From Octopus vulgaris (lineage: Eukaryota): DNA of 64,000 bases. Shown here piece by piece: positions 9,656 to 38,298 of the stretch (position 1 is the first letter of the stretch; each line of letters starts with the position of its first letter). The notes under the pieces were generated by a model. The model was given only the letters and a program-made list of their open reading frames with translations. It was not told the DNA's origin and did not search any database. The position numbers and the translations under genes were made by a program. The stretch lies in assembly GCA_951406725.2 (NCBI GenBank), contig OX597821.1, positions 41,416,001-41,480,000 of the forward strand. The letters are read 5' to 3'.

Positions 9656-9735
9656 GGGCATGATTACACTGCACTAAATCCAGGTGGGACCAGCAGGCAT
9701 GGGTATATGAATAATCCGCTAAACTGGTTTTTAAG

Positions 9736-9870
9736 ACAATTCTATATTTAAGAGATGAAGAATTATATACATTATTTACATTTGACAGATGTCTTCATCT
9801 TGCATATGGCATAGTGGTTAAGAGCGTGGGCTACGAACCCCTAGATTCTGAGTTTGATTCCAGGCGGTGA

Positions 9871-9908
<38 letters not shown>

Positions 9909-10088
9909 TTAATAATAATAATAATAATAACAATAACATTGAAAAATAGGAATGAGAACCCAGATTCGAAATTTCCCCAAGACACCTGATGAAGGCTGGA
10001 GGGTATATCAGCCAAAACATTGTGTTAACAACAAATAAGATGAGGATAAATATCCGTCAAATGTAAATAATTTAAATAATGTAAATAA
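9736..10088 (+). mobile_element. Non-autonomous element: inverted termini + tRNA-like head + (AAT)n + minimal hammerhead ribozyme
   Basis: 11-bp flanking repeat TGGTTTTTAAG (9725-9735 / 10089-10099); A box 9807-9817, B box 9850-9861; hammerhead motif 9982-10025; 9762-9802 inverted relative to 10037-10088. Confidence 0.8.
9982..10025 (+). ncRNA. Minimal type I hammerhead ribozyme (decayed copy)
   Basis: ACAC-CTGATGA-A-GGCTG(loop)CAGCC-AAAA-CATT-GTGT; GAAA core reads AAAA here, GAAA in the copy at 38191-38234. Confidence 0.72.
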
Positions 10089-10231
10089 TGGTTTTTAAGG
10101 GTAACATATTTAGAATAAAAGCAGAAAATCATAAATTTCACATATAGTTCATACCTTGTGTTCAACAGCTGTTTCATTAGGTTAAACATCATTAAATGTA
10201 TAATTATATAAATGCAAAAAATAATTAATTA

Positions 10232-36304: not shown

Positions 36305-36844
36305 GCAAGAAACTGACAGAAAGATAGATGCAAATAGGCCAGACATTATACTGAAAGACTTCAGACAAAAATCATGCCTCCTTATCGATATGATTGTCCC
36401 AATTGACATAAATGTATCTGTCAAGTCCTACCAAAAACTGAGCAAGTATAAAGATCTTAAAATAGAAATTGGCAAAATGTGGAACCTCAAGACTAAAACA
36501 ATACCTGTTGTCAAAGGTGCCTTAGGAATGATAGCAAAAGGGGCTGGTCGCTACCTAGTTCAGATACGAAGAAATCCCAAAATAACAAAAATTCAAAAGA
36601 TAGTGCTCATGGGAACTGCCCATATCCTATGCAAAATACTTTCTATGTAATCTCAAATTTTAAAACAGACTTATAATTTTCTTATGGTTTCTTAAACATT
36701 CTCTAGACCAATACAGCATACAAAACCAAATATATGGCACCCTAGGCATATCACCAACATGAACTTTTAACTTGTTGTCTCTCGAGGTCTCTGGGTGAGA
36801 CTTGAAGCCAACTTGTACAAATACAAAGCAAAAGTCAAACATAC

Positions 36845-36845
<1 letters not shown>
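36305..36845 (+). mobile_element. R4/Dong-clade LINE 3' end (RLE endonuclease)
   Basis: TDRKIDANRPDIILKD..CLLIDMIVP..KLSKYKDL..IPVVKGALG..IQKIVLMGTAHIL*; PD..D..K motif; (TAA)n on both sides. Confidence 0.92.
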
Positions 36846-36879
<34 letters not shown>

Positions 36880-36897
36880 CAACAGCAACAACAACAA

Positions 36898-37170
36898 CAA
36901 AGCATGATAGAGTTGGTCAATATCTACATTGGATAATATGTCAGCATTATAAAATCAAAACTGCTGACGAATGGTACAAGTGCCACCCTGAGGTTGTAAC
37001 TGAGGGAGAAAATGTAACTATTCTTTGGGACTTCCCAGTATGTACAGATCGGATCATCAAGGCAAATAAACTAGATTTTGTTGTGAAAGACAAAAGCAAT
37101 AAAGTCTGTTTATTGATTGACATGAGCAAACCCTATGACCATAAAATCTCGGCAAAAGAATTTGATAAGC
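36898..37170 (+). mobile_element. R4/Dong-clade LINE fragment (RHD motif to RLE)
   Basis: KHDRVGQYLHW..WY..HPE.V.E...ILWDF.V.TDR.IKANK.D.VV..CLLIDM. Confidence 0.9.
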
Positions 37171-37171
37171 C

Positions 37172-37720
37172 CACACCCAAATGGTCCTTAAAATGCAATT
37201 CTTGCATTCTCATCTCGATTTTTTTCCAACAAATCTTGATGCTGTTAGTGATGAGCAAGGTGAGAGGTTCCACTAGGACATATTTGAGATGGAAACGAGA
37301 TATCAAGGCCGGTTCAATCCACACATGATGGGTGACTACTTCTGGTTCCTACAATAGGAGGCCAGCATGACACATAAGCACAAGAGCAAGTGTCTCAAAC
37401 ATTTCTGAGCTGATCATATCGAAACTAAAGTGAGCATTCCCTCGACATTAATATACTATGTGCCATTATATTATAATACTATTTGCCTTGAACATAAATA
37501 TACTATATATAGTACTAATATACTATTACAATAATTATTTAACTTGGACTTAAGTATTCCTAATACTAATGTAGTATTATTATATAATTATGTGCATAAC
37601 TCAAAATCCTGATGTGGTACAGCAATTCTGAGTTCAGATTCGGAATCAGCGTACTGTTTTTAGTTTAGTACAGCACCATTTGTCTGGGAAACAGACAATA
37701 ATTTTTTTTGCTACCCAGTG
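37172..37720 (+). mobile_element. DNA transposon 3' part (TcMar-m44-like transposase C-terminus + TIR)
   Basis: LKMQFLHSHLDFFPTNLDAVSDEQGERFH*DIFEMETRYQGRFNPHMMGDYFW; end ttttttgctacccagtg followed by TA. Confidence 0.8.
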
Positions 37721-38008
<288 letters not shown>

Positions 38009-38112
38009 GTGCCTGGTGTGCCCTTATCAGACGGGTAGTCATGATGGGTATATTGGGCTTCGTATATTTTACCCCAGTGTCACTTTGATGGCATGAACTG
38101 CTCTCTCACTCA
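38009..38112 (+). mobile_element. Short 3' fragment of the (TAA)n-embedded retroposon
   Basis: Reverse complement of 6957-7060. Confidence 0.88.
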
Positions 38113-38134: not shown

Positions 38135-38298
38135 CAACAACATCGAAAAATACCTTAGGAATGGGAACCCAGGTTCGAAATTTCCCCAACACACCTGATG
38201 AAGTCTGGAGGGTATATCAGCCGAAACGATGTGTTAACAACGAACAAGATGAGGACAAATATCCGTCAAATGTAAATAATGTAAATAATGTACATAAT
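38135..38298 (+). mobile_element. Second (3') copy of the hammerhead-bearing element
   Basis: Matches 9932-10088; hammerhead motif ACAC-CTGATGA-A-GTCTG..CAGCC-GAAA-CGAT-GTGT at 38191-38234. Confidence 0.85.

Follow-up and report, generated by a model that had tools for sequence, protein, structure and literature searches.

Our analysis of the repeat unit at positions 9725 to 10099 of the window (the whole stretch of 64,000 nucleotides that was analysed) leaves hardly any doubt that the unit, its tRNA-derived head included, is the 3' UTR or pLTR of an autonomous Penelope-like element (PLE) of the Poseidon type. The original prediction had described it as a separate, non-coding hybrid of SINE and retrozyme. 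Instead, the head lies inside an autonomous element and the hammerhead within the 5' end of its ORF. Mobilisation by a Penelope RT/GIY-YIG protein had been proposed as well and is judged right. Not encountered in the papers searched is the presence of a tRNA-derived head with A and B boxes inside the pLTR of an autonomous PLE, whereas the rest of the anatomy is known from PLEs. Overall, the observations are probably best explained by an autonomous PLE with a tRNA-derived RNA polymerase III (Pol III) start in its pLTR.

The unit is bounded, as predicted, by an 11-bp direct repeat that forms the left (9725-9735) and right (10089-10099) copies of a target-site duplication, both on the forward strand. 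This repeat occurs twice in the window against 0.05 times by expectation, and 0 of 100 shuffles reach two occurrences. Next to the left copy lies an inverted arm on the reverse strand, consisting of a 33-bp PLE tail (9736-9768), which is the same as the ORF sequence directly past the pLTR, and the remainder of the 5'-truncated arm (9769-9802), which is a copy of the post-hammerhead segment and has G9802 in common with the head. An inverted left arm had been proposed for 9762-9802; it is present but longer (9736-9802), and includes the 33-bp tail that is absent at the right end. The arm is a 5'-truncated inverted copy of the 3' end and no terminal inverted repeat, and inverted ends of this kind are ordinary PLE insertion products. 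On the forward strand follow the tRNA-derived head (9802-9874), which covers tRNA positions 3 to about 75 and contains an A box (9807-9817) and a B box (9850-9861); an (AAT)n tract of variable length (9875-9936); the pre-hammerhead segment (9937-9981); a minimal type I hammerhead (9982-10025) with a predicted cut after 10021; and the post-hammerhead segment with 9-bp repeats (10026-10089), which makes up the tail-less 3' end. A box, B box, (AAT)n and hammerhead motif were all found in the order originally given. The inferred start codon of the ORF is located at 9952-9954, in frame with the Penelope N-terminus in natural copies and aligned to the N-terminus of P0003, a relative at 55% identity. 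Positions 9952-10089 make up the first 46 codons of the element's ORF, so that the unit is not wholly non-coding as had been described.

A second copy of the 3' part, expected near 38135-38298, was found at 38141-38298 on the forward strand. It comprises the 3' part of a headless pLTR with a hammerhead at 38191-38234, and has (AAT)n and the 3' end of a different repeat in front of it. The (AAT)n tract is an insertion site for other elements, which sit in it in the window (38010-38112) as well as at L033, L043, L057, L240 and L245; judging from a motif, the inserts at L043, L240 and L245 resemble what may be the end of an R4/Dong-type LINE. A 185-codon frame at 36771-37328 of the window (forward strand) likewise resembles, by its motif, the C-terminal part of what is presumably an R4/Dong-type LINE protein. 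ARAGORN found no tRNA in the window, and neither a tRNA nor a hammerhead is present among the best 150 of 290 Rfam matches for the window or, at E<=10, among those for L020:1300-1800.

The tail of the unit continues into common sequence at two loci (L049 and L060). Loci found by a search with this sequence translate to a Penelope-type N-terminus, followed by RT and GIY-YIG-like motifs, and the passage from tail to Penelope N-terminus is present in L049, L060 and L121-L150. Among 29 loci selected by the GIY-YIG end of the element, 26 carry the tRNA head directly 3' of the ORF, with tRNA position 1 at 29 bp past the stop codon; in one of the three remaining loci (L159) the head is partly deleted. 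When loci are selected by the head, the 3' module follows it in 29 of 29 cases (window locus excluded), so that the co-occurrence of head and hammerhead, proposed earlier as a check, is confirmed. The order of the element is ORF stop, 29 bp, tRNA head, (AAT)n, start codon, hammerhead and then tail/ORF, the optional tail of 31-33 bp being ORF sequence. The ORF of ~810 codons begins upstream of the hammerhead and reads through it, and each unit measures ~2.6 kb. Between tail and stop the majority letters of the aligned copies leave a single frame of 773 codons open, natural copies carry the frame further upstream to an ATG 30 bases before the hammerhead, and P0003 encodes the same peptide across the hammerhead. 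No natural copy has a complete open ORF, the longest natural frame being 569 aa; L231 and L237 are near-full copies. Hammerhead-bearing pLTRs are found on both sides of the ORF at L186/L246, L122, L237 and L231. The family is also present in contigs of four other organisms, in two of which (runs X17 and X19) head and ORF end are bridged with at least 31 bases on each side.

The natural 569-aa frame matches RVT_1 with an E-value of 2.7e-6 and 27.7 bits, slightly under the cut-off of 29.6, and 2,744 relatives were obtained at E<=1e-30. The C-terminal motif VYxIPCSCG..YKGET is present and common to the closest relatives; the Pfam GIY-YIG model yields no match on the query and is recorded for 3 of the 120 relatives listed. 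A Cys-rich linker before the endonuclease is described as a Neptune trait and used as a criterion (PMC8557442). CX2-5CxxC is absent from the L235 frame and present in the other PLE family, L368. Since the protein is without the Cys-rich linker found in this Neptune-like family of the same genome, the element would be placed with Penelope/Poseidon, by the linker criterion rather than an RT tree. The Neptune-like family was itself returned by a Pfam GIY-YIG genome search for a partner and was rejected as such. It includes many intact frames of 781 codons (L368 and L369 on G000 C16; L067, L070, L072, L074, L079, L083 and L085), and its 3' end shows a hammerhead-like motif with a U3-A8 swap, followed by (AT)n; swaps of this type in PLE hammerheads are on record (PMC4209133). 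Ten loci of lower identity, considered as a sister family, turned out to be decayed copies of the same family.

The hammerhead consists of a 4-bp stem I, CUGAUGA, one extra A, a 5-bp stem II and a palindromic stem III. The consensus that had been derived from the two local copies agrees with the column majority of ~360 arms, and the classification as a minimal type I hammerhead with palindromic stem III holds: the core CUGANGA/GAAA/UH and stems I and II are all present in the column majority. The exact hammerhead has 2,200 genomic matches (N7 limited to T or G) against 0 in the control, and is intact in 9 of 97 unselected arms. As predicted, both local hammerheads are substituted, copy 1 with G12 and G16.2 changed to A (both CpG positions) and copy 2 at a stem II base and U16.1. 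The Rfam matches listed include no hammerhead model; both copies tested are substituted in the core or stem III, and the motif comes without stem III. Minimum-energy folds of monomer and dimer do not show the active hammerhead, but the copy folded (L018) carries the G12 change and this result therefore says little. An excess of copy ends at the cut was not found, as 2 of the 22 ends inside the 3' module lie at the cut site. Also observed were a 3-bp deletion that recurs at the cut site in 38 of 369 arms, keeps the frame and is unlinked, and, behind the cut site, variation of the 9-bp repeats in whole codons.

If CpG decay and N7 (T 82%, A 15%) are set aside, core columns are 96-99% conserved. 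Variation at N7 shows linkage with two further variants (p 7e-10 and 1e-6) and is the sole linked non-CpG variation of the core, which argues that the source copies differed only at this free position. Nonetheless, core conservation is no proof of selection on the ribozyme because the hammerhead also codes for protein, and compensatory pairs in the stems are absent from this pile-up of one young family. By sequence the ribozyme is an ordinary member of the class of minimal hammerheads described for metazoan PLEs (PMC4209133), which have the same layout: a stem I of 4-5 bp, an extra base between 9 and 10.1, G10.1-C11.1, a palindromic 15.2-16.2 and, as here, opposite-strand pairs 100-700 bp apart.

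The post-hammerhead 17-mer has 14,145 exact genomic matches against 1 in the reversed control and is intact in 46 of 102 arms that were chosen independently of it, from which we estimate ~31,000 arms. These diverge from the column majority by 6.0% on average (4.9% outside CpG; lowest value 2.1%; n = 95). Insertion anatomy was scored in 84 units, which stem from the first 100 matches to the pattern on contig C1. Two outward-facing 3' ends are present in 41 of the 84 units, with the tail at one end in 35, at both ends in 2 and at neither in 4. Duplications of at least 8 bp accompany 24 of the 41 two-ended units, against 3 of the 43 others and 1.7% of shuffled pairs. Inverted truncated arms and a 30-40-bp tail are known PLE traits (PMC8557442). 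For the Poseidon element of anole it has been reported that the ORF start overlaps the hammerhead, that RT begins at two internal tail-flanking sites, and that the hammerhead is protein-assisted and dispensable for insertion in vitro (PMC11167929). None of these features is new for PLEs, as the literature already describes minimal hammerheads and target duplications as well as one-sided tails and inverted arms with 5' truncation. Internally deleted mini-copies with common junctions occur at L126-L129, L138 and L139, where a headless tandem unit of ~276 bp (tail, ORF start and hammerhead) has a retrozyme-like appearance, with three hammerheads in L127. In a second group of mini-copies (L121, L122 and L124) the ORF start is joined to the head.

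The head is colinear with tRNA genes of the host genome, the best of the 11 genes of few isotypes compared being Arg-TCT (49 of 77 columns, z 7.5 against shuffles), which does not fix the source tRNA. Searching 84 loci with a profile of 8 host tRNAs returns the head as the two best matches (E 2e-4 and 7e-4; the next is 0.016), and the column majority shows both the A and the B box at consensus. Among 80 metagenome PLE loci no tRNA-like head of comparable score was found; in many cases the contig stops short of the 3' UTR, and the loci are distant (28-48% identity to P0003). At L286, six tRNA-Cys-like genes form an array within 3 kb, together with one that is read as Ser.

At the start of the head the copies show a pronounced step in their 5' ends. 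Exact 17-mers occur genome-wide 6,502 times for the head, 1,216 times for the spacer directly before it and 1,035 times for the ORF end, so that copy number drops 5.3-fold at the head start and only 1.2-fold across the next 130 bases upstream. In a sample of 100 arms, taken from the start of one contig with both arms of an insertion counted, the head is missing from 46 and 12 stop within it; a further 31 have their end between -12 and +12, 3 between -13 and -60, and 8 in the ORF (4 of these 8 long arms being possible duplicates). Of the 42 arms that extend as far as tRNA position 12, 31 stop in the interval from -12 to +12, and the end hazard at the head start is 0.056 per base against 0.004 and 0.007 on the flanks. 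The 31 hot-spot arms comprise 10 head-to-head fold-backs, 8 arms joined to an inverted 3' piece and 13 without an inverted partner within 60 bases; hence 21 are not joined to an inverted head, and one of them (L358) is a clean single copy with a 16-bp duplication. A 5-bp palindrome at -7 to +5 spans the head start, and together with the 10 fold-backs it suggests that part of the step may be an RT artefact. In three copies the front pLTR reaches the head; none extends further upstream and two begin at the head. Short (140) and long (47) arms do not differ at any column below p 0.002, and the short copies are therefore no separate SINE lineage. Two further ideas were dropped: a 10-nt leader as a SINE-only hairpin from inverted dimers (the six bases before the head belong to the autonomous 3' UTR), and RNase P-type processing behind the step, which is unlikely as on inspection of the sequence the T and acceptor stems of the head pair poorly.

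Pol III stops at runs of at least four T (T4). The 2,604-nt unit, composed of the ORF region by majority letters and of spacer, head and pLTR from natural copies, contains 0 T4 runs against 4.7 expected (P 0.009 by composition); a synonymous shuffle of the 607-codon core alone gives P 0.09 for their absence. In 18 natural stretches 12 runs were counted against 64.5 expected. Related PLE ORF stretches show the opposite: the 64 controls, which are those of 80 metagenome-contig stretches that measure at least 1,400 nt, contain 564 runs against 374 expected (1.5-fold), and 1 of the 64 is without any. A Neptune-like PLE ORF of the same genome and the same length has 8-9 runs. Because the family constitutes one observation, the absence of T4 is supportive and not decisive. 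The one control without T4, an unrelated PLE ORF stretch of 1,906 nt (L386), shows a T-rich UTR, no tRNA-like piece and an ordinary minimal hammerhead.

We consider a working Pol III start at the head quite likely. It is rather unlikely that the head is instead a fragment of a tRNA or SINE, carried passively in the 3' UTR of an ordinary PLE transcribed by Pol II, with the pile of 5' ends produced by RT stalling or fold-back at the palindrome and the lack of T4 due to chance. The palindrome at -7 to +5 with its many head-to-head pairs, the lack of sequence difference between short and long copies, the Pol II-like nature of the known PLE promoter and the one T4-free control ORF among 64 all agree with a passive fragment. 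Such a fragment fits poorly, however, with the 21 of 31 hot-spot arms that have no adjacent inverted head (the clean single L358 included) and with consensus A and B boxes in the column majority. Moreover, the step falls where a tRNA-type promoter begins transcription, and ORF, spacer and pLTR are all free of T4. Still less probable is a division of labour, in which Pol III would make short pLTR RNAs only, as a built-in SINE, and the protein would come from Pol II read-through of full copies. This would account for both the 5' step and the preponderance (5:1) of short copies without the need to translate uncapped RNA, and the RNA-seq signal of the family does track copy number along the element, yet both the T4-free ORF and the front pLTRs starting at the head (two of three) are left unexplained.

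That the short copies form an independent non-coding SINE/retrozyme lineage, made of a tRNA head and a borrowed PLE end, is highly improbable and largely refuted by the junction of ORF and head. Although most copies are short and start at the head, as such a lineage would have it, the head is part of the autonomous element at 26 of 29 loci and is bridged to it in contigs of two other organisms, the comparison of 140 short with 47 long arms yields no column below p 0.002, and no tandem arrays of the head-bearing unit were seen. A tRNA-derived SINE is expected to be a distinct lineage that shares only its 3' end with the autonomous partner; here the head itself occurs in the autonomous element and there are no diagnostic columns. 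Pol III transcription, which the original prediction had assigned to a separate SINE, is the best reading of the head in view of the 5' step and the T4 absence, but within an autonomous coding PLE.

Under the preferred reading of a Pol III start in the pLTR, transcription would begin ~7 bases before to 4 bases into the head of any copy and proceed to the first T-run. Short copies would give an RNA of 300-400 nt ending past the tail, which may be copied in trans by the RT/GIY-YIG protein of the element, the pLTR thus acting as its own SINE. A pLTR in front of the ORF would yield the full 2.9-kb RNA, which would explain selection against T4. By analogy with the anole Poseidon, RT would start at two internal tail-flanking sites and so produce the one-sided tail, after which a second inverted copy would close the insertion between duplications of 8-13 bp. 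The hammerhead is predicted to cut only as a dimer or with the element protein, at 70 nt behind the start codon. A cut of this kind would silence or circularise the RNA rather than be needed for each insertion, and only uncut or re-ligated RNA would code.

That Pol III also supplies the translated RNA is put forward tentatively. The same reserve applies to the complete scenario, in which a captured tRNA promoter would have replaced the Pol II promoter, the whole 2.9-kb RNA would be made by Pol III from an ORF purged of terminators, the message would be uncapped (perhaps circularised by the hammerhead) and solo pLTRs would be SINEs. An RNA made by Pol III without a cap is poorly suited as message for a protein of 810 residues, and this is the weak point of the Pol III reading. 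According to Kojima, Pol II is obligatory for autonomous elements (PMC10886601), and the only PLE promoter studied, that of Drosophila virilis Penelope, comes with a DPE and an intron and belongs to the LINE/Pol II type (PMC2377424), unlike the element described here. Self-cleavage is reported to induce cap-independent translation in viral UTRs, though the geometry differs from that of our element (PMC13725137). RNA-seq data of organism D (three raw runs of one study, ~6% of each run) show equal signal on both strands and no pile of starts or ends at the head or the cut; the reference copy is gapped in the hammerhead, (AAT)n was skipped and the library is unsuited to RNA ends.

In comparison with known systems, the element resembles PAc of Anolis (PMC11167929) and Penelope of D. 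virilis (PMC2377424) in its single ORF, RT, pLTR and a C-terminal end of presumed GIY-YIG type. With Penelope/Poseidon PLEs as described in these papers it shares a hammerhead-overlapping ORF start, an optional in-ORF tail of 30-40 bp, inverted 5'-truncated arms and target duplications. It differs by the A/B-box tRNA head in the pLTR and by the T4-free unit; the two descriptions, as far as accessible, mention no tRNA head. A tRNA-derived Pol III head followed by a hammerhead, with a promoter upstream of the cut that drives the next unit, is also known from Sm-alpha and Sj-alpha of Schistosoma (via PMC6765202 and PMC2770079). According to these sources, however, the schistosome repeats are non-coding, tandem and without a head-sharing autonomous element, whereas here head and hammerhead are part of a coding element's pLTR and most copies are single or inverted. 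The capture of a Pol III promoter derived from a small RNA in a terminal repeat recalls the TRIMp3 elements Cassandra, Helenus and Ajax, but these are described as non-autonomous LTR elements of <1.3 kb (PMC10886601) and the present element is an autonomous PLE with 2.6 kb per unit. Short hammerhead-bearing derivatives of PLE pLTRs are likewise known as animal non-LTR retrozymes, which are reported to form head-to-tail tandems with a hammerhead per unit (PMC7229834; bioRxiv 10.64898/2026.07.22.740005), while the unit in the window occurs singly and carries an arm in inverted orientation. Tandems were seen only in the headless 276-bp derivative (L126-L129, L138 and L139), which fits the definition of a retrozyme better than the window unit does, and not among the head-bearing copies, all of which were of the single or inverted kind.

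A literature search, carried out without Repbase, Dfam and most subscription journals, returned no paper that describes an autonomous PLE with a tRNA head or an autonomous element driven by Pol III. Ohshima and Okada reportedly described three octopus SINEs in 1994. A recent annotation of octopus repeats comprises 190 Penelope-like families besides many unclassified SINEs, with no mention of hammerheads in its supplement as far as accessible, and its repeat library may well hold the element family (PMC13282606).

Summarizing what the finding would mean, autonomous retrotransposons are assumed to depend on Pol II, on read-through by Pol I or on a host transcript, and Pol III promoters are known from non-autonomous SINEs and TRIMs. 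Should the Pol III reading prove wrong, the element would be no more than an ordinary, decayed Poseidon family. For annotation the element holds a warning, as ~30,000 arms that look like SINEs are PLE ends. With a PLE that combines a tRNA promoter and an ORF free of terminators it becomes testable whether Pol III can supply translated retrotransposon RNA, and also how tRNA-headed hammerhead SINEs such as Sm-alpha arise. If the reading is true, the element would be a living intermediate between LINE-like and SINE-like elements, and would provide a route to SINEs of the Sm-alpha type.
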